Source: a virus. Taken from it: a stretch of DNA of 64,000 nt. The stretch covers positions 4,156 to 68,155 of the IMG/VR virus record IMGVR_UViG_3300005613_000053. One strand, 5' to 3'. Of this stretch, positions 3,312 through 25,250 are shown piece after piece. The position numbers were made by a program, and so were the translations under genes. Position 1 is the stretch's first letter. Each line of letters starts with the position of its first letter. The notes under the pieces are model-generated. The model was not told the DNA's origin, made no database searches, and saw only the letters and a list, made by a program, of their open reading frames with translations.

Positions 3312-4409
3312 TTACGGAGTAACAAATGCTCCACTACCGTCAGATATAATACACGGAGGCAATGTGGTCGTTCCCGAACACCTACCACCAAGACCCTTAA
3401 CGGAGAAGGACCTGTTTGTAACCGCATCTGCTCCAGTAATACCGTAATCATCACTCTCTACCACAACAGCCGGCAGTTCGATGAAGACATCGTTACTTCC
3501 GTTATTGATAGCAACCCTGAACCAGGTGTTTTCAGCGTACATGTACGGACTTGTCAGCGTACCTGTGCCAGCCGGACCCAGAATCGGGTCAAATACACCC
3601 TGCTCATTGTAAAGAACTACAGTACCGGTAACATCCATCGGACCCTGAAGCAGGGCTGTAGGAAGCCTGTTACCATTACATGTGTAAAGCAGTACGTGGT
3701 TCTGCGTTACATCAACATTCCACTCAACAGTCTCAAGACCAACCTGAGGGACCGCACCACCAGTAAACGGAGCACTGTAAGTACCCGTCAACAGCTGAGC
3801 ATTCGTCCTCCAGAAAGGAATCGGGTCAACGTTATTACCGCTCGGGTTCAACGGATTAGTGTCCGCCAGAACCGTACAATCGCTAGCAATAACACCGAGC
3901 TTCTGGTTGATGTAGCTATAATTTGAATAATCAGTACCACCAGCCGGGTCAACCTCACTCCTGTCCAGAGCTATCGCTCCAGCAGAAACCGTAACGAATG
4001 ACCCCTCTGAAGTAGAGAAGCCTGCGGAAGTATTCCACATTCCGTTCAGGTCGTAGTTTGCCCCATAAGCGCCTGTCGTCCTGTACTGGTACACCCTTGC
4101 GCCGTCAGGCGAGATGTCCACAGACTTCGGGTACGCTCTGTTAGTGATAATCCAGTCCTCCATCAGGTCCCACAGCTGATTACTTGCACCCATCTGAAGC
4201 TCGAAATCAATCGAACCTTCATATCTGATTGCGTTGTCAGCATAGTGAGCCGCACTCGCCGCATTATACCAGCCAGCGCCCCATACAGCACTGGAGTAAA
4301 TCGGCTCCAGAACCAGGTTCACGCTCGAACCGGTAGCCAAAACTACCTGCGGAGTCGTGGCCGGACCTGCAACGTAGAACTTCACGAATCCTTGATATCC
4401 CATTCCCAT
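3312..4409 (-). CDS. Major tail tube-like protein (paralogue 1)
   Basis: MGMGYQGFVK start; strong SD; Gly/Thr-rich beta composition. Confidence 0.6.
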   Translation of the reverse strand: MGMGYQGFVKFYVAGPATTPQVVLATGSSVNLVLEPIYSSAVWGAGWYNAASAAHYADNAIRYEGSIDFELQMGASNQLWDLMEDWIITNRAYPKSVDISPDGARVYQYRTTGAYGANYDLNGMWNTSAGFSTSEGSFVTVSAGAIALDRSEVDPAGGTDYSNYSYINQKLGVIASDCTVLADTNPLNPSGNNVDPIPFWRTNAQLLTGTYSAPFTGGAVPQVGLETVEWNVDVTQNHVLLYTCNGNRLPTALLQGPMDVTGTVVLYNEQGVFDPILGPAGTGTLTSPYMYAENTWFRVAINNGSNDVFIELPAVVVESDDYGITGADAVTNRSFSVKGLGGRCSGTTTLPPCIISDGSGAFVTP

Positions 4410-4441
4410 GACTATTTCCTCCTATCTTACTTGCTTGCCCA

Positions 4442-5239
4442 TTACAACTGAATCTGCCTCTCCTTGAGGTTCTTCACTTTAACCGTATCTCCAACGGTAC
4501 CTGTCGACCCTGCCGGTACAAACCCGGCTCCTATCACGTCCAGGAACCTGTCAGAAGTTCCACCAACATTCACAACAGCTCCCGGGGCCGACCCTCCAGG
4601 TACCGTCACATCAATCGTCGTAGGATTGTCATTAACATCCTTAACCGACAACCTCAAGTCCAGGTCAGTACCGCCCATCGTTACTACCTCAACCTTCAAC
4701 TGGGTAGCAGCAAAATTACTGCCATCCGCCGGATTCGTCACAGCACCGTTGCCGTAATTTATCCCATCAGTAAACTGTACCGACGGTCCTGATACGACCT
4801 CGAGCTCTGCGAACTCGTCGTCCCCTTCAGAGAACACATTGACGGCATGCATATACCTACCAATAACCGCGAAATACAGCTCACCAAAATATTGGCTCAC
4901 CCTCACGTCATTGTCATACAAATATCCGTCCCATCCTCCAACTTGTAAATAATTACCGTTCGCGTCTCTTCTTACAAAATGAGCATCCATGCCACCTATT
5001 ACCCCAGGCAACCTTGTCCCATACTTAGCCGCGAATCCCGGCTCTAAATCATCATCGACCTCTTCGTACACCGGCTCAGTCGGAATCTCAACATCCGGGT
5101 CATCCGTCGCCGTCACAGTATCAAAGTAATAACCCAATCCCTCTTGGCTTATTGCCCCGAAAACCGTCTTCAACTGTCCATACTGGTAAGCTGCTCTATC
5201 AGCCACCCTCAACAGTGTCGCTGTATCAACCAATGGCAT
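4442..5239 (-). CDS. Virion structural protein (hypothetical)
   Basis: Between neck and tail genes; Gly/Val/Thr-rich C-terminal domain. Confidence 0.5.
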   Translation of the reverse strand: MPLVDTATLLRVADRAAYQYGQLKTVFGAISQEGLGYYFDTVTATDDPDVEIPTEPVYEEVDDDLEPGFAAKYGTRLPGVIGGMDAHFVRRDANGNYLQVGGWDGYLYDNDVRVSQYFGELYFAVIGRYMHAVNVFSEGDDEFAELEVVSGPSVQFTDGINYGNGAVTNPADGSNFAATQLKVEVVTMGGTDLDLRLSVKDVNDNPTTIDVTVPGGSAPGAVVNVGGTSDRFLDVIGAGFVPAGSTGTVGDTVKVKNLKERQIQL

Positions 5240-20189: not shown

Positions 20190-21974
20190 TTACACCGAGA
20201 CAGTCCATCCCTCTCTAATCTGGTCCACAGTAGGCAGCGGGTCTCCCTCACCACCCTCAGTACGAGCCAACATCGTGAATACCTTCTCCGAGAATCCCGC
20301 AAGCTGGTTAGTCTGCGAATCCTCATCAACAACGGCATCACCCGACCCGTTCAGGTGAATACAATGAAGCCAGGTCTTCTTAGCCTCCTTAGAAGAGGCA
20401 ACATAAGTCGACCATGTATCACACACAGCCTTTACCTCATCATCATAAGACCTTCCCCAGCCACCCCTACTTCCAGCCATACTGGTGTCATCCCAGCACT
20501 GCATATCCGACAGGATTATCACCCTGTCAGGATAGATACCCTTCTTCTTCAACAGGAGAGGAATCTTCCACGCATTGGTATTATGGCCATTGATACCATT
20601 CTTAGGCATCTTTCCAGCTATACCAAGAACACTCTCATTCTTAGTATAATTGATAACCTTGGTATCAGTAGCGAAACCATACACGTACGGCTTCTCAGCA
20701 GCCTTAGCCACTATTCCACACAGAACACTTGCTGCATCAGCACAACTTACTCTGCTCTTACCAGACACCATCGTCGAAGTCATAGACCCCGAAGCATCTG
20801 CGAACACAGCAGTCACACCAGGCAAATCAATATTCCTACAAGCGAAATCAGCAGCCTGCTCAACAGCACCAGCCAACACATTCCTATGTGCACCATCAAC
20901 ACCAGAGATATCCAGTGACTTCAGCGCACTCAGGAACCTGAATGGAAGCTGCTTAGACCTCTCTACAACCTTCTCATTTGAGATAAAAGCCGCCACCTTA
21001 TCTACATGACTCTCGCTTACCTCCGCCTGAAGAATATTCCTCAGGTTCCTCAGCATAGCCATATAGCCCAGAAGCCTCTCATCAATAAGAAACTCCCATA
21101 CTGCCTTCTTCTCATCCGGGAACTGAGAAAGCAAAACCTCCCAGTTCACCATCGAATCCTTAGCGAGTTTCCTCGCCTTCTCATCGAACTTCGAAAGCTG
21201 CAAAAGCTCCTTCCTGGCAGCGATAATAGGTGTTTTACCTGAGTCAGCCACGTGGCCTGTAATGAAATAATTCGCCACGGCATCGTCCAAAGGCCATCCC
21301 TTCTTACGCTTAATCCAGCAAAGCACATCCTTCCATGAAGGAAACTCAGCTCCCTCATACTTCATAAGACCCCTCTCTCCGAACCTTGAAACCGCATCAC
21401 CCAGGCCCATATCAAGACCATGAGACAGCGACTTCATCCCGAAGAAGAACCTATGAAGCAAGAGCACAGTCTTCACCTCATCAGGACGCTTTATAATACA
21501 AGGTGCATACCTACGTACGAGCGTCTTCGTCGACTCAATCTTTGATGCTATCACCAATATGACCTGCGGAGTAAGACGAATATTCATCTCATTCCTCAGC
21601 CAGTTAGCTATAGCCAGAACATCCTCCGGATTCCCGGAATTAGCCACGTCAACTATCGTCGCCACGACCTCCCTGGCCACATCATTAAGCTCATCACACG
21701 AAGCAAAATCCTTCAGCTTGTCATCAACCAACTGAATCCTCTGGACCAGTTTGCCAAACTTTCCACCGCCTACCCTGCTTGGTATACAGGCATCAGCACT
21801 GTAAAACTTAGGCTCAGCGAAAAATGAACCTCCGGTCATAGTCACCAGCTTGAGAGCCGGGTCATTAACCTCAAAAGCCACTCCACCTGCCCTGTTCACA
21901 GTAGCATTAGGCTGTGAGCTAGGCTTCCTACTAGCCTTCGCCTTCTTCCTTGCCATCTTCTGCATCGTACCCAT
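20190..21974 (-). CDS. rsr: Ro60/Rsr-like TROVE-domain RNA-binding protein with C-terminal vWA domain
   Basis: NRAGGVAF, MAMLRNLRN, SKQLPFRF, DASGSM (MIDAS), ILSDMQ, LAGFSE; AAGGAGG SD before ATG 21974. Confidence 0.92.
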   Translation of the reverse strand: MGTMQKMARKKAKASRKPSSQPNATVNRAGGVAFEVNDPALKLVTMTGGSFFAEPKFYSADACIPSRVGGGKFGKLVQRIQLVDDKLKDFASCDELNDVAREVVATIVDVANSGNPEDVLAIANWLRNEMNIRLTPQVILVIASKIESTKTLVRRYAPCIIKRPDEVKTVLLLHRFFFGMKSLSHGLDMGLGDAVSRFGERGLMKYEGAEFPSWKDVLCWIKRKKGWPLDDAVANYFITGHVADSGKTPIIAARKELLQLSKFDEKARKLAKDSMVNWEVLLSQFPDEKKAVWEFLIDERLLGYMAMLRNLRNILQAEVSESHVDKVAAFISNEKVVERSKQLPFRFLSALKSLDISGVDGAHRNVLAGAVEQAADFACRNIDLPGVTAVFADASGSMTSTMVSGKSRVSCADAASVLCGIVAKAAEKPYVYGFATDTKVINYTKNESVLGIAGKMPKNGINGHNTNAWKIPLLLKKKGIYPDRVIILSDMQCWDDTSMAGSRGGWGRSYDDEVKAVCDTWSTYVASSKEAKKTWLHCIHLNGSGDAVVDEDSQTNQLAGFSEKVFTMLARTEGGEGDPLPTVDQIREGWTVSV

Positions 21975-22052
21975 TCTGCACCTCCTTATTTGAAGCGTAG
22001 CCACACATTGTAGCTACCAATTAATAATCACCGTTTCCACTCAGTCACGGCA

Positions 22053-22085
22053 ATAAAAAAGCCGAATACCCTTAGGTACTCGGCC
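22053..22085 (-). terminator. Intrinsic terminator after the tRNA
   Basis: GCCGAGUACC-UAAG-GGUAUUCGGC followed by U6. Confidence 0.85.
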
Positions 22086-22089
22086 TTCA

Positions 22090-22164
22090 TGGTAGCGGGA
22101 GACGGATTCGAACCGCCGACCTCCAGGTTATGAGCCTAGCGAGCTGCCGCTGCTCCATCCCGCA
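22090..22164 (-). tRNA. tRNA-Met(CAU), initiator-type, CCA encoded
   Basis: UGCGGGAUGGAGCAGCGGCAGCUCG..CUCAUAA..GGUUCGAAUCC..CCCGCUACCA; 1:72 mismatch. Confidence 0.95.
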
Positions 22165-22174
22165 ATCATAAAAA

Positions 22175-22247
22175 GAACCGACACCAATAATCGTCTAAGG
22201 CTTTGTTTCCTATGAAGAAGTATCCCTAGACTGAAGCGTATCAATCC
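22175..22247 (-). ncRNA. Minimal Y RNA-like RNA
   Basis: GGAUUGAUAC/GUGUCGGUUC closing stem; GCUUCA / GAUUAUUG internal loop; GUCUAGGG/CCUUAGAC stem; GAUACUUC motif; next to the TROVE gene. Confidence 0.7.
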
Positions 22248-22254
22248 AAAAAAC

Positions 22255-22350
22255 ATCAGTACCAGTATCAACCTGTCCGTACAAACAAGTCTTGCCAGGT
22301 GTACGCCCGACTGGCCATCGCTTCTGCGACTGTGGCCATCTAGCACCAAC
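22255..22350 (-). ncRNA. Unknown ~95-nt structured RNA
   Basis: 11-bp terminal stem GUUGGUGCUAG/CUGGUACUGAU; two internal arms; U-rich spacers on both sides. Confidence 0.55.
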
Positions 22351-22364
22351 TAAATAATAATAAA

Positions 22365-22690
22365 AAATCTTCAACTCCAATAGTCGCTTGAGGTAACCGG
22401 AGGCGCCTCGGAAGTAGTTAGTTCCGCGCGTGCTCCTTTACAATTCAGTATTACCTGAAAGGTGCTCCCTTTACGCGGTTGCATACGCCCTTGCCATTCC
22501 TGACAGGGAAGTATCTACATAACCCGTAGACGGTCGCCCGAAGGCAATTTGTCATGCTTCAGCACTCTAACCGAAGAGCTCCACACAACGGATTAACGCT
22601 CACAACCGGCCCGCTTTCACGGTCCTGTATAATGCGTTATTACTGTTTTCAGTATAAGAAGTAACCCCTTACTGAAGCGAGTCAAGATTT
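22365..22690 (-). ncRNA. Long (~325 nt) Y RNA-like RNA with a large multi-hairpin insert
   Basis: Same end motifs as 22175..22247 (CGCUUCAGU..GGGUUACUUCUU and CGACUAUUGG); closing stem AAAUCUUGACUC/GAGUUGAAGAUUU. Confidence 0.7.
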
Positions 22691-22741
22691 TTCCATTTCA
22701 AAGAACTATCATAATATACACGCAGTCTCTGGAAAGTTCAA
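22691..22741 (-). promoter_or_regulatory. Sigma70-type promoter plus boxA-like element
   Basis: TTGAAC-17 nt-TATATT, then GTTCTTTGAAATGG. Confidence 0.7.
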
Positions 22742-22751
22742 CAAAAAAGTT

Positions 22752-22994
22752 TCACTTTTTTATTCTGCTATGTACGTACTCTGCAAGACCCCTACCAGTT
22801 AGTGAATTATTTATATCACTTTCCGGTATTCTCAGACCCATATCATCTTCCAGGTCCATTGCCAATTCCACCGCAGTCATCTCGTCCAATCCGAGAGAAT
22901 TAAGTCCGGCTTCCATATCTACTACTTTAGGCTCCATATTCAGAACATAAGCAATAACATCTCTCACCGCCCCAAATACCTCGTCCGCACTCAT
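22752..22994 (-). CDS. Acyl carrier protein-like protein lacking the phosphopantetheine Ser (LGLDEM)
   Basis: 80 aa acidic; VRDVIA..LGLD[E]..VELAMDLED..GLRIP..T...Y matches the ACP pattern. Confidence 0.8.
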   Translation of the reverse strand: MSADEVFGAVRDVIAYVLNMEPKVVDMEAGLNSLGLDEMTAVELAMDLEDDMGLRIPESDINNSLTGRGLAEYVHSRIKK

Positions 22995-23003
22995 ACGACC
23001 TCC

Positions 23004-23936
23004 TGGTTAGTGTGAAAGAGCAGTTACCCAACATGGGTACACTAAGTTGCAGTCCGCAACCTCTGCTCCAGTAAAAGCCCCTCCAGGGCAAAAAGATACG
23101 ATGACGGAGCGACGGAGGAGTCTACATCCTCTTGCCTTTGTTTCCCTCGCTCCTTTCCCTTTCGGGCGCGTTGTCGCGGTTCGGCGTCCGCTTTGGAGTA
23201 GATTATTCCCCGTCATCGAATTGATGGAGTGTATGGGAATCACCCTTCTGCCATCCTTGTTACCGCCTTACAAAATCTAATAAGTTCACCATCAGTATGA
23301 GAATTCCTTGCATAATTCGCTATAACAGCAATGAACCTAACATTACCTTTTACATAACCCTTACTACTATCTATACGGTCTAAACTAGCCCTATGAGACC
23401 ATTCACATTCAGGCCACTTACCCGTCGTACTTATAGGCAACTCCAACTCCCACCCAGTCAAAGGACACAAACCCTCTTGCTTGTCCCATATAAATTTTAA
23501 ATCCTCTAAAGTTAAATCAACCTCTTTATTCCCACGTCTACCTATTGCTCTCAGCAAGAACCAACGGAATGGTGTATACTCATCCCGCCTATTTTTAGAA
23601 CATAGACCCAAATGCCAATAACCCTCAGAAGGTGTATCTATATGCCTCCTTTTACTAGAACAAGATAAACTACAAAAGTGACGCTGGCCTTTCCTTTCGC
23701 TTCTACTATACTCAGAAAAAGTCTTTTGGAACTCTTTTTTACACTGGAAACACTCAACACTAACCATCTTCCTCATGATACCCTCCTCATCATTAAGAAA
23801 GATATTAGATAATTATTGGAGCAATGGTATTGTTTCATTCCGAATACCATCTTTCCACTCAGTCAACACCCCTTGATAAGATAACTCGCCTACTCAACTA
23901 AAGGTACCCGTGCACAGGCTCCTTCAGCCCCAACCA
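23004..23936 (-). ncRNA. Large unknown structured RNA interrupted by an HNH ORF
   Basis: Nested pairings across the ORF: UGGUUGG/CUAACCA, UGAAGGAGC/GCUCUUUCA, GGGUAC/GUACCC, AGUUG/CAACU, UGCUCCA/UGGAGCA; internal GAUGACGGGG/CUCCGUCAUC. Confidence 0.55.
23240..23776 (-). CDS. HNH/His-Me finger endonuclease with N-terminal Zn finger
   Basis: CFQC..FCSLSC; LCPLTG..SLDRIDSSKGYVKGNV..AN. Confidence 0.85.
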   Translation of the reverse strand: MRKMVSVECFQCKKEFQKTFSEYSRSERKGQRHFCSLSCSSKRRHIDTPSEGYWHLGLCSKNRRDEYTPFRWFLLRAIGRRGNKEVDLTLEDLKFIWDKQEGLCPLTGWELELPISTTGKWPECEWSHRASLDRIDSSKGYVKGNVRFIAVIANYARNSHTDGELIRFCKAVTRMAEG

Positions 23937-23961
23937 TCCTTAAACCTCAACGAGTTAAAAT

Positions 23962-24330
23962 TGGTGGACGTGGGGAGATTTGAACTCCCGTCCTGAACGG
24001 GCTTACCATATGCCTCTACGTGTGTATCTGAATTTACAGTAATCAGAAACTGTTTGTCCGTCTTCCCGAACTGCCATCCCGTCTTTCCGGACTGTCAATG
24101 GTCTTACCCGATTGTCAGAGCTGTCTGTTAGACCTCAAGGCTTACTTGCTCACGCTCGCCTGTTTTGGCTCGGTTGCTTACGCAGCAGCGAGAGCCGGAG
24201 CTCTCTCTGCACCGAAAAGATTGATAACGTTGCCGTTTATCAGTTTGTACCAGATGATTTACGAGGCCAACTGGAATCCTCGACACGCAGCGTATGACTT
24301 GCATCCGACAGTCGAATCCTTGTCACGCCC
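23962..24330 (-). ncRNA. ssrA: tmRNA, tag (A)GNVINLFGAERAPALAAA
   Basis: 5' GGGCGUGACAAGGAUUCGAC; G3-U70 pair; pk1; resume context AUAAAC-GGC; tag ends LAAA*; 3' GUUCAAAUC..UCCACCA. Confidence 0.95.
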
Positions 24331-24339
24331 AAAATTAGG

Positions 24340-24577
24340 CCTGCCTCTCCCCTTTCGGAGGTTTGTGCTCCACGATACATCTTGCGGTCCGGTTTTTCCC
24401 TCGCGGTACTTTGCCGTGTCCGCCTGACCACCAACGCGCAGGCGACGTTGGGGCTTCAAAGCATGGGGACGAATGGTTTCCCTTGCCGGTACTCACACCC
24501 ATCAACTCCACCACCCAGGTCTGGCCCGTTACCTTCCTTCTGCTTGACTACCTGGGACACAGAAGACTTTAGGCAAA
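24340..24577 (-). ncRNA. Unknown ~240-nt RNA with two pseudoknots and two loop-E/GNRA hairpins
   Basis: Closing UUUGCCU/AGGCAGG; CUUCUG/CAGAAG crossed with CCCAGGU/ACCUGGG; CCAACG/CGUUGG crossed with CGCCUG/CAGGCG; AGUACC-GGCAA/GCGA-GGGAAA twice. Confidence 0.6.
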
Positions 24578-24582
24578 TGTTT

Positions 24583-24800
24583 TGGCCGCCGAAACGGCCA
24601 TCCCGGCTTTCAAACAGTCAACAGTGAAATCGCCATTGGTTGTATGAACGATATACTTAAATTAACCACTATCAGTCGGATAAAATATAATGGAGGCTGT
24701 AAGAACGGTAGTCCCGACAATACGCGACTGTATTTTTTCACCTTCTGCCCGGCCTCGCAAAATACTGCGATAACTGCCAAGCACAATCTCCAGTGCTCCA
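24583..24800 (-). ncRNA. Unknown structured RNA or operon leader
   Basis: GGCAGUUA/UGACUGUU, GGUGAAA/UUUCACU, CAGUCG/CGACUG, UCGCA/UGCGA with loop GUAUUU complementary to AAAUAC. Confidence 0.4.
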
Positions 24801-24808
24801 AATCCTTA

Positions 24809-24869
24809 TTCCATTTTCAATGAACATGCCCTAATATCGCGAAACTTCACGTAAAAGGGAATTAAAAAA
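24809..24869 (-). promoter_or_regulatory. ATTCC-N16-CGCGATA promoter-like motif plus boxA-like element
   Basis: Same motif at 28040-28067 and 28863-28891; GTTCATTGAAAATGG downstream. Confidence 0.6.
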
Positions 24870-25250
24870 TCAATCTTTTTTCAACGCCCTCTTCAAGAAC
24901 CCCGGCTTCGTCTTATCAGCCGACTCTTCTTTCCCCTCTAAAACGTCTTTAATAGAGCCCTTCAGTTCAGTACCCTCTATCGACATAACCTCATTACCAG
25001 CCATATCAACTACCTTACCCGGGACTATAATCTCCCCGGCCTTCCGGCGTCTCTCAGTATCTTCCCTGTGTCTCTCAACCTGTTCCCACTTCCTATAAGT
25101 CCTGGCCTCCATCCATCTGCCATCTATCAGCACCACCAGCACCCACTTAACAGGACCCAAGTTCTTGGCAATATTATTGGCCTTCTTTATGGCCTTCTGC
25201 CTGGCCTTCTTCTTCTGTTGTTTTCTAACTTGCGCTTTCGTTCTCGACAT
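24870..25250 (-). CDS. Basic hypothetical protein
   Basis: GGAGG SD; upstream TTTAAC-17-TATAGT promoter-like sequence. Confidence 0.7.
   Translation of the reverse strand: MSRTKAQVRKQQKKKARQKAIKKANNIAKNLGPVKWVLVVLIDGRWMEARTYRKWEQVERHREDTERRRKAGEIIVPGKVVDMAGNEVMSIEGTELKGSIKDVLEGKEESADKTKPGFLKRALKKD

Follow-up and report, generated by a model that had tools for sequence, protein, structure and literature searches.

A tmRNA-associated endonuclease-like gene splits a tRNA-like gene beside the tmRNA of a large phage, probably by a homing-type replacement

The window analysed here is a stretch of 64 kb from a 68-kb IMG/VR virus record (IMGVR_UViG_3300005613_000053; completeness estimate 29%), and its source is a large phage that is present only as a fragment. 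On the minus strand, which carries all sizeable open reading frames (ORFs) of the window, an ORF of 178 amino acids (aa) resembling HNH endonucleases and endonuclease VII (Endo VII) lies between a transfer-messenger RNA (tmRNA) gene and an acyl carrier protein (ACP) gene. It belongs to a viral protein family that is found beside tmRNA genes, and it is enclosed by two fragments of a tRNA-like gene that is intact in an ORF-less allele, the metagenome contig L020. The most probable explanation (probability about 0.6) is a homing-type event in which a tmRNA-associated endonuclease-like gene was inserted into the tRNA-like gene beside the tmRNA, or more exactly took the place of its interior. A large RNA, an intron and an RNA-guided complex are rejected as readings of the locus. 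The features concerned are as follows.

24330-23962, minus strand: tmRNA in one piece with an encoded CCA (Rfam RF00023, 116.3 bits, gathering score 47; also called by ARAGORN)
23961-23873, minus strand: spacer past the tmRNA, containing a local hairpin (23929-23896)
23872-23851, minus strand: 5' fragment of the tRNA-like gene, with the acceptor strand GGGGUGU (23872-23866) and the D-loop-like GAGUGGAAA; 21 of 22 bases as in L020 876-897
23850-23777, minus strand: lineage-specific 5' leader of the ORF, with hairpins 23851-23823 and 23805-23777 in the minimum free energy (MFE) fold
23776-23240, minus strand: 178-aa HNH/endonuclease-VII-like ORF
23241-23222, minus strand: 3' fragment of the tRNA-like gene; 18 of 20 bases as in L020 1032-1051
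185 nucleotides (nt), minus strand: non-coding sequence between the tmRNA and the ORF
245 nt, minus strand: non-coding sequence between the ORF and the ACP gene

The ORF-less allele and its breakpoints

An HNH-less allele, which a preliminary description of this locus had proposed to look for in related phages, exists in L020. This was the sole metagenome contig matched by the ACP protein search, and no ACP relatives were found among viral contigs. The two alleles align over 24338-23851 at 95% identity and over 23241-22668 at 86%; between these blocks L020 has 134 nt vs. 609 nt in the window, the latter composed of the 74-nt leader and the ORF. The homology breaks off at 23851, within the D arm of the tRNA-like gene, and picks up again in its T loop. 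Both the insertion polymorphism and its breakpoints are directly visible in this comparison. The match of a short contig from public metagenome run X3 (record 23) also ends at 23851, and four public DNA runs yielded only short, low-depth contigs of relatives; no RNA run was among those listed for this sequence. Two contigs ending at 23024 were considered as a breakpoint and rejected, since domains B and C of the 3' flank (72% identity) fall below the 80% threshold.

The tmRNA (23962-24330) shares 95.4% identity with L020 418-786, and the spacer (23873-23961) shares 93% with L020. The local hairpin 23929-23896 keeps 13 of its 14 pairs there, with one double compensatory change from G-U to U-A. 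For the leader (23777-23850), no alignable counterpart was found in L020 save short motifs, and none in the other 80 loci that were examined. Its hairpin 23805-23777 covers the Shine-Dalgarno sequence GAGGAGG of the ORF in the MFE fold.

Homologous tmRNAs without the ORF are also found in L015 and L016. The relatives of the phage that carry a Ro60 homologue (56-59% identity) have the order tmRNA, short gap, tRNA-Met and Ro60, and the ORF is absent from them. The same spot in L012 and L014 is occupied by other endonuclease genes or their remnants. For example, the tmRNA of L014 (4446-5460) ends in an altered tail (CCAAAA); behind it come a classic HNH ORF of 160 aa, encoded on the opposite strand, and then the sequence from the T arm to CCA once more, in perfect form. 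About 435 nt interrupt the T loop of the L012 tmRNA (4037-4862) with a LAGLIDADG remnant on the opposite strand, and the missing T-stem, acceptor and CCA end resumes after them. This 435-nt insertion had no Rfam intron match, and the profile of tmRNA-linked introns found nothing in L012 or L014.

The split tRNA-like gene

The intact tRNA-like gene (L020 876-1051, 176 nt) is located 88 nt 3' of the tmRNA. Its acceptor stem of 7 base pairs (bp) includes G3·U70. It also has a D arm, and its T arm consists of a 5-bp stem and a 7-nt loop (GUGGG-UUCGAGU-CCCAU), after which come ACACUCC-ACCA with A73 and the CCA end. Alanine identity of both tRNA-Ala and tmRNA is conferred by G3·U70 together with A73, and the window's own tmRNA has the G3·U70 pair as well. 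The element was called by ARAGORN in intron mode at the default threshold, whereas none of 300 dinucleotide shuffles of L020 was; no tRNA-like call was obtained in the window. Its last 28 nt are identical to a phage tRNA-Ala (L037). About 100 extra nt occupy the position of the anticodon arm and fold into other hairpins. L020 has no proper anticodon arm, the stem proposed by ARAGORN having two G·G mismatches and needing an 85-nt 'intron'. Beside its tmRNA, a large phage carries in this element an unannotated tRNA-like gene with alanine-identity marks and a putative function.

In the window, the 3' fragment comprises the 3' part of the T loop and the 3' strand of the T stem (GAUUCCCAU), and overlaps the UGA stop codon of the ORF. 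It continues with the acceptor strand ACACUCC (23232-23226), A73 at 23225 and UCA in place of CCA at 23224-23222. Judged by L020, GGGGUGU (23872-23866) pairs with ACACUCC (23232-23226) as the acceptor stem with its G3·U70. The window fragments lack everything from the 3' strand of the D stem through the interior to the 5' strand of the T stem, and the T arm is reduced to its 3' half. What has been replaced begins with the D-stem 3' strand and reaches into the middle of the T loop; the acceptor stem is therefore the only genuine pairing across the ORF. The tRNA-like gene is most likely inactivated in the window phage.

Several other matches in this region were examined. The model tmRNA_permuted matches 23850-23999 with 24.3 bits (E = 0.029; gathering score 47), where the tmRNA T arm and CCA are followed by GGGGUGUUGAC of the second element; a two-piece tmRNA is rejected here, as its two acceptor strands would be unable to pair. 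A 20-mer taken from the T arm and acceptor occurs in 29 viral stretches of mixed kinds (tRNA-Arg, tRNA-Ala, tRNA-Gln, permuted tmRNA and many uncalled), and as a pointer to a donor it names none. The 21 viral-contig matches to a 15-mer of the element's 5' end were attributed to chance, as none continues. Searches for further copies of the flanks in the whole records of five relatives gave T-arm-sized matches only.

Association of the ORF family with tmRNA genes and introns

An alignment-based search gave 236 viral relatives of the ORF, and the best 80 of the 236 were examined, near-identical contigs being kept. At ten viral loci the relatives share 43-50% identity with the ORF, and these loci have no other gene in common with the window. 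In all seven of the loci scanned first, a tmRNA ends about 40-70 nt upstream of the ORF. Across the larger set, the ORF is abutted at 76 of the 80 loci either by a tmRNA or by a group I intron that lies beside or within a tmRNA gene, as judged with profiles built from 26 tmRNAs and 14 introns that were called by Rfam in part at these same loci. The family's link to tmRNA genes is thereby observed directly, and the arrangements are:

Same-strand tmRNA upstream: 53 of 80 loci, 0-138 nt away in 50 and 313-383 nt away in 3
Antisense tmRNA downstream: 9 of 80 loci, beginning -1 to 31 nt past the stop codon
Antisense group I intron abutting or overlapping the ORF end: 13 of 80 loci
69-nt mini-tmRNA beginning within the stop codon: 1 of 80 loci (L116)
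tmRNA 626 nt away: 1 of 80 loci
ORF at the contig end: 3 of 80 loci

A same-strand tmRNA at most 100 nt upstream was called independently by ARAGORN in 23 loci, and an antisense one downstream in 6. At the Rfam gathering score, tmRNA and/or Intron_gpI were found in 19 of 20 and 16 of 20 loci (35 of the 40 scanned); the 14 Intron_gpI matches in related loci scored 60.8-96.3 bits. Among the three loci with a distance of 313-383 nt, a group I intron above the Rfam threshold lies between tmRNA and ORF in L112 and L131, and intron-like sequence only in L096. The ORF of L112 is free-standing, because it is placed after the intron, the 3' exon and a terminator hairpin; a promoter-like site also precedes it. 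These results show a widespread phage protein family that is tied almost without exception to tmRNA genes and T-loop introns. Full-text literature searches returned, in the text that they make accessible, no paper on such an HNH-like family beside phage tmRNA genes.

The sequences around the ORF also carry traces of tmRNA ends. In L093, L094, L098, L103 and L095, the bases directly past the stop codon repeat 8-16 nt of the 3' end of the upstream tmRNA, and in L103 and L095 the repeat begins in the T loop, as in the window. The upstream copy of these direct repeats completes the tmRNA gene. The insert is a single small gene without an integrase, and in the window an RNA gene has been left split.

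Some single loci of the family are described here in their own right. In L160 (crAss-like phage cr6_1, NC_055894.1), a group I intron at 2036-2292, which nhmmer assigns to the tmRNA-linked type with 183 bits, lies antisense and directly 3' of an annotated 'endonuclease' gene homologous to the window ORF. In L116 (1061-1780), the ORF is preceded at a distance of about 140 nt by a tmRNA-like 5' half, and the ORF stop codon is overlapped by the 5' strand of a complete 69-nt mini-tmRNA without a coding sequence (CDS; 57.7 bits). A tRNA-Ala overlaps the ORF stop codon in L114. Phages with the ORF family also encode amber-suppressor tRNAs, whose anticodon is CUA and which ARAGORN labels tRNA-Pyl (L002 6347-6420, L004 4509-4582 and L005 5019-5090); these may point to stop-codon recoding in such phages.

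The protein and the proposed homing

The embedded gene of the preliminary description is real (23240-23776, minus strand), and the ORF is full length compared with its relatives. In alignment A3 two parts are recognised:

ORF domains, N-terminal: Cys4 zinc finger of the MYM/FCS kind
ORF domains, C-terminal: ASLDRID..GY..NVRF..AN motif, invariant in the family

The strongest matches among the PHROG families were 3322 'endonuclease' (1.7e-17), 1035 'endonuclease VII' (1.3e-13) and 3118 'HNH endonuclease' (8e-8). In the Atlas, the protein falls into large viral clusters with hundreds of 'hypothetical proteins', and the nearest named clusters are HNH at 0.86-0.87, which is a lead only. When the motif is compared with those of Endo VII (D40-H41-D42-H43) and F-CphI, the Asp, Arg and Asn appear, in our own reading, to be retained.

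Nuclease activity, target and mobility of the protein are inferred, and the likely mechanism is as follows. In co-infecting relatives without the ORF, the protein would recognise the conserved DNA in which tmRNA or tRNA-like genes encode their T arm and 3' end. It would then cut or nick the target DNA in the ORF-less genome, and repair from the carrier genome would copy the ORF in (homing).

A number of points weigh against such a homing-type replacement, and several of them concern the enzyme. A weaker PHROG match (1.8e-7) was to Srd-type proteins, which to our knowledge are not known nucleases. No Pfam nuclease model was matched at E ≤ 10 by seven members and no NCBIfam model at E ≤ 1, and a PDB sequence search (E ≤ 1) returned no Endo VII or HNH nuclease of solved structure. 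The seven aligned members of A3 have no invariant histidine; in the motif ASLDRID, R134 and D136 are invariant, and by our own reading they would stand where Endo VII and F-CphI have their two catalytic histidines. The nuclease activity is unproven because these histidines are replaced. The family, in which the usual catalytic histidines are lacking, is one of two things: a homing nuclease whose active site is of a new variant, or another kind of protein that acts together with tmRNA.

Other such points concern the locus. The difference of 134 vs. 609 nt indicates a replacement rather than a clean insertion, and the two alleles would fit either direction of the event. L020 retains GAGGAGGG-AUGA(A/G)G, which resembles the start region of the ORF, and possibly also holds a trace of the ORF 3' end; because of these remnants it may be a deletion derivative. 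The tRNA-like gene is known from one sequence (L020), has no proper anticodon arm, and is not reported there by the Rfam tRNA and tmRNA models at E ≤ 1. The acceptor helix shows no covariation, because its sequence is the same in both alleles. The fragment past the window stop codon is no repeat of the neighbouring tmRNA end. In addition, ARAGORN found no tmRNA beside two crAss-like phage homologues, one of which has an antisense intron.

Pairing across the ORF

The preliminary description had drawn at least five nested helices between the two flanks, which would close around the ORF as the two halves of one large RNA of about 390 nt. Such helices can indeed be drawn (23936-30/23010-04, 23926-18/23021-13, 23909-04/23040-35, 23886-79/23029-22 and 23872-66/23232-26), but the number of possible helices is at chance level: 112 inter-flank helices of at least 6 bp were counted vs. 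95.1 ± 13.4 in shuffled sequence, and 37 of at least 7 bp vs. 37.9 ± 7.8. Joining the flanks gained -5.2 kcal/mol, compared with -10.1 ± 3.3 kcal/mol when the 5' flank was shuffled, and 98 of 100 shuffles gained at least as much. Folded alone, the 5' flank folds well (z = -3.4) and the 3' flank moderately (z = -1.7). The first four nested helices have as rivals local hairpins with compensatory changes, and 3 of their 11 pairs that differ in L020 are broken. Over all 69 candidate cross helices, 56 of the 109 pairs changed relative to L020 are broken, whereas the competing local helices of the 3' flank show 7 double changes and no broken pair. Cross-ORF pairing is at chance level with the exception of the acceptor stem, the fifth helix (GGGGUGU/ACACUCC), which alone is independently supported. 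The remainder of the flanks divides into separate local modules: the hairpin 3' of the tmRNA, the leader with its hairpin over the ribosome-binding site of the ORF, and the structured RNA before the ACP gene.

Some observations would fit the large RNA. Both flanks are conserved in L020; helix 23926-18/23021-13 has one double compensatory change, 23886-79/23029-22 keeps 8 of 8 pairs, and the fold of the whole 967 nt has z = -2.1. Against these stand the chance-level pairing, the tRNA-like CCA end of L020, which separates the 3' flank from the rest, and the lack of any Rfam family matching the flanks; a single large RNA of a new kind, of about 390-430 nt, is therefore very improbable. The observations of the preliminary description were confirmed in part, since the embedded ORF, the 3' motifs and the non-coding flanks stood and the nested helices did not. 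The flanks behave as non-coding because one-base indels between the alleles shift the frame; a 78-aa ORF across the 3' flank has an 80-aa counterpart in L020, of which only the first 50 residues align (56% identity).

Alternative explanations

The interpretation given in the preliminary description also survives in part. Its closest option was a non-coding RNA parasitised in a loop, as an RNA gene is interrupted by the ORF when judged by L020; that RNA is a 176-nt tRNA-like element rather than one of about 390 nt, its interior has been replaced, and most of the 3' flank lies outside it. The atypical intron found no such footing. If the 609 nt were a self-splicing intron (group I or other) in the tRNA-like gene, this would suit the 3' junction in the T loop, where the G of the UGA stop codon just precedes the T-loop remainder, as well as the T-loop group I introns that adjoin ORF relatives in 14 loci and those well documented for tmRNA genes in the available text of PMC11915505. 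However, Intron_gpI (RF00028) had no match at E ≤ 10 in 21900-25000 and none at E ≤ 1 in L020. An nhmmer profile of the 14 tmRNA-linked introns, which finds L157 (205 bits) and L160 (183 bits), matched nothing at E ≤ 10 in the window, L020, L012 or L014. The 74 nt outside the ORF are too small for a ribozyme core, and splicing could not rebuild the tRNA-like gene, since neither fragment supplies the D-stem 3' strand or the T-stem 5' strand. Considering also the free-standing ORF of L112, an intron is highly doubtful. Practically no credence is given to an RNA-guided or RNA-associated nuclease complex of the protein with its flanking RNA, for which the adjacency of the ORF to structured RNA is the sole point. 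Searches of 21900-25000 at E ≤ 10, with the flanks scanned unjoined, returned nothing relevant for HEARO/OMEGA or other guide RNAs, GOLLD, ROOL, 6S, RNase P or the signal recognition particle (SRP) RNA. The preliminary description had recognised no RNase P, SRP or clear group I P7 signatures. By blastn, the flanks had no similarity beside any of about 90 relatives (L002-L011, L079-L158), and the 3' flank persists, its role unchanged, in the allele without the protein.

Among the readings that keep the tRNA-like ends, one holds that the pieces were no gene but the footprint of repeated insertion or recombination at tmRNA ends. Imported or duplicated end fragments of tmRNA or tRNA-Ala would then travel with the cassette, L020 would be a deletion derivative, and the cross-ORF pairing would be functionless in every allele. 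The duplicated tmRNA 3' ends around the ORF in five loci agree with this, as do L116 with its upstream tmRNA-like 5' half and downstream complete mini-tmRNA, the ribosome-site/AUG motif and perhaps the 3'-end trace in L020, and the presence of the T arm and acceptor sequence in unrelated tRNAs and a permuted tmRNA. However, the acceptor, D arm, T arm and CCA of L020 are complete and mutually fitting, with no shuffle in 300 being called, and the 5' part is identical at 21 of 22 bases between the alleles; the footprint is considered rather unlikely. It is also unlikely, and slightly more so, that the protein is an accessory factor of phage tmRNA biology (e.g. in RNA binding or processing) and not a homing nuclease. 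The position beside a tmRNA gene or a linked group I intron (14 confirmed by Rfam) at 76 of 80 loci, the catalytic histidines of HNH/Endo VII missing in all seven aligned members, and the Srd-type match of 1.8e-7 would all suit such a factor. Its presence, however, varies among close relatives with near-identical tmRNAs (the window vs. L020; L015 and L016), and the ORF is found on either strand relative to the tmRNA. The tmRNA-end repeats that flank it, the linkage to group I introns, which is like the collaborative homing described in the available text of PMC6083498, and the strongest profile matches to endonuclease families also favour homing. A more speculative and quite improbable reading is that the ORF family rides in tmRNA-like scaffolds, with the tRNA-like ends as working parts of the endonuclease transcript. 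The acceptor with alanine identity and the T arm would close round the ORF, as the tRNA-like domain of tmRNA does round the tag frame; RNase P, 3' trimming and perhaps charging or SmpB binding would cut out, stabilise or deliver the mRNA. The recurring layout in the window, L116 and L114 would then be design and not debris.

Comparison with known systems

The proposed homing-type replacement can be compared with F-CphI of cyanophage S-PM2, a free-standing homing enzyme of the Endo VII type beside an intron-bearing psbA gene (PMC6083498, available text). Both are small free-standing phage genes of endonuclease type (177 aa for F-CphI, 178 aa here) with an Endo-VII-like C-terminal motif, the neighbouring gene often has a group I intron at the presumed target, and presence or absence differs among relatives. 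The neighbour is psbA in that system, whereas it is a tmRNA or tRNA-like gene here. In addition, the histidines of the DHHRN motif seem to be replaced here (R134 and D136, in our own reading) and no Endo VII structure was matched; the window ORF lies inside an RNA gene without an intron, and its nuclease activity is putative.

According to the available text of PMC11915505, group I introns interrupt the T loops of tmRNA genes at four subsites, and the only endonuclease genes reported within these introns (36 of 883) are of the LAGLIDADG kind. The hot spot invaded is the same, namely the T loop and 3' end of the tRNA-like domain, and the 14 ORF relatives mentioned above adjoin such introns. In contrast, the window has no ribozyme, the ORF is not of the LAGLIDADG kind and stands outside the intron (L112), and the hosts are phages. 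Several kinds of mobile elements appear to share one hot spot, the T loop and 3' end of phage tmRNA genes.

The mobE and seg genes of T4-like phages, as described in the available text of PMC2790892, are likewise endonuclease genes placed between or into conserved genes, patchy among relatives, and spread by break repair with co-conversion of the flanking DNA. Here, however, the target is an RNA gene, part of the tRNA-like gene has been replaced, and the active-site motif is atypical. A CDS-less mini-tmRNA is known from mycobacteriophage DS6A (PMC11915505, available text). It consists of the tRNA-like domain only, the 69-nt element of L116 is of the same kind, and the L020 element has the same G3·U70, A73 and CCA marks. 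The latter differs in its length of 176 nt, to which extra internal sequence contributes about 100 nt, and in its tRNA-style D arm; it is uncalled by the tmRNA model and coexists with a full tmRNA.

Structured RNA upstream of the ACP gene

The 3' flank is not part of the tRNA-like gene, because it is located downstream of the CCA end. The preliminary description had ascribed to it a domain of its own, and the motifs of that domain are present. The following features were recognised:

23217-23100, minus strand: domain A, a multi-helix junction closed by GAUGAC/GUCAUC
23089-23073, minus strand: terminator-like element, a small G+C hairpin with UUUU on its 3' side, both conserved in L020
23069-23017, minus strand: domain C, two hairpins within GGAGCAG/CUGCUCU, directly 5' of the ACP Shine-Dalgarno sequence
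23004-22999, minus strand: ACP Shine-Dalgarno sequence
22994-22752, minus strand: ACP gene (Pfam PP-binding, 1.1e-8; 88% aa identity in L020)

Within domain A, GAUGACGGGG (23217-23208) pairs with CUCCGUCAUC (23109-23100), and CCC-GAAA-GGG lies at 23166-23157. All consensus pairs of this domain are kept in L020, where a different hairpin is found in place of CCC-GAAA-GGG, and the 127-nt stretch that holds it (23221-23095) shares 79% identity with L020. The RNAalifold consensus of the 3' flank with L020 has 56 pairs, all of which are kept, with 7 double compensatory changes and none broken; 6 of the 7 lie in domain C, and since only two sequences are compared and the structure was derived from them, this covariation is suggestive and not proof. 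Slid controls gave 0-1 double-change pairs and 39-49% pairing. Domains B and C together share 72% identity with L020, whereas the third codon positions of the ACP gene differ at 11 of 81. The kept pairing speaks for selection on the structure, because the 3' flank diverges more than these third positions.

The module is most likely a leader or attenuator of the ACP gene, or else a small RNA released after the tRNA-like element. More speculatively, the 3' domain could be a new regulatory RNA for a phage ACP gene. No relatives of the 3' flank beyond L020 were found by blastn in all fetched loci, and a 19-mer of domain A had no matches in viral contigs. Its 54 matches in genome contigs were rejected as chance in G+C-rich genomes, because they extend over 21-31 nt only.

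Other features of the locus

The features downstream of the ACP gene are:

22751-22165, minus strand: non-coding sequence of 587 nt downstream of the ACP gene
22164-22090, minus strand: tRNA-Met (ARAGORN)
22004-20190, minus strand: Ro60/TROVE gene

The tmRNA of the window encodes the tag GNVINLFGAERAPALAAA. Over the 64 kb, the Rfam gathering score was reached only by the tmRNA and the tRNA-Met, and a phage database search with the 3-kb region gave tRNA-Met matches only. In the non-coding sequence at 22165-22751, a promoter-like site was recognised at 22741-22713 and a CUUCAG....GGGUUACUUC-type motif occurs twice; the sequence finishes with UAUUGGUGUCGG immediately 5' of the tRNA-Met. These modules are kept in four relatives upstream of the tRNA-Met and the Ro60 homologue, and are probably Y-RNA-like partners of the phage Ro60 protein.

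Small repeated hairpins on GG(G/A)AAGAC occur inside the window tmRNA (about 24030-24110), whereas blastn located them in relatives inside the Y-like RNAs instead (L012 5041-5072, L014 5619-5650 and L015 5562-5602). They may be a common protein-binding motif. Twister-P5 ribozyme matches were found in phage relatives at L016 2185-2273 (48.6 bits) and L012 3448-3524 (38.0 bits), with a gathering score of 37.6. Upstream of the tmRNA, the non-coding sequence 24331-24869 (540 nt) is 90% conserved relative to L020 2-272 and matches no Rfam family; its predicted structure has almost no informative changes between the two. Directly before the tmRNA, L020 has an extra 136 nt (273-408) with the inverted repeats TTCGAGGC and GCCTCGAA as borders.

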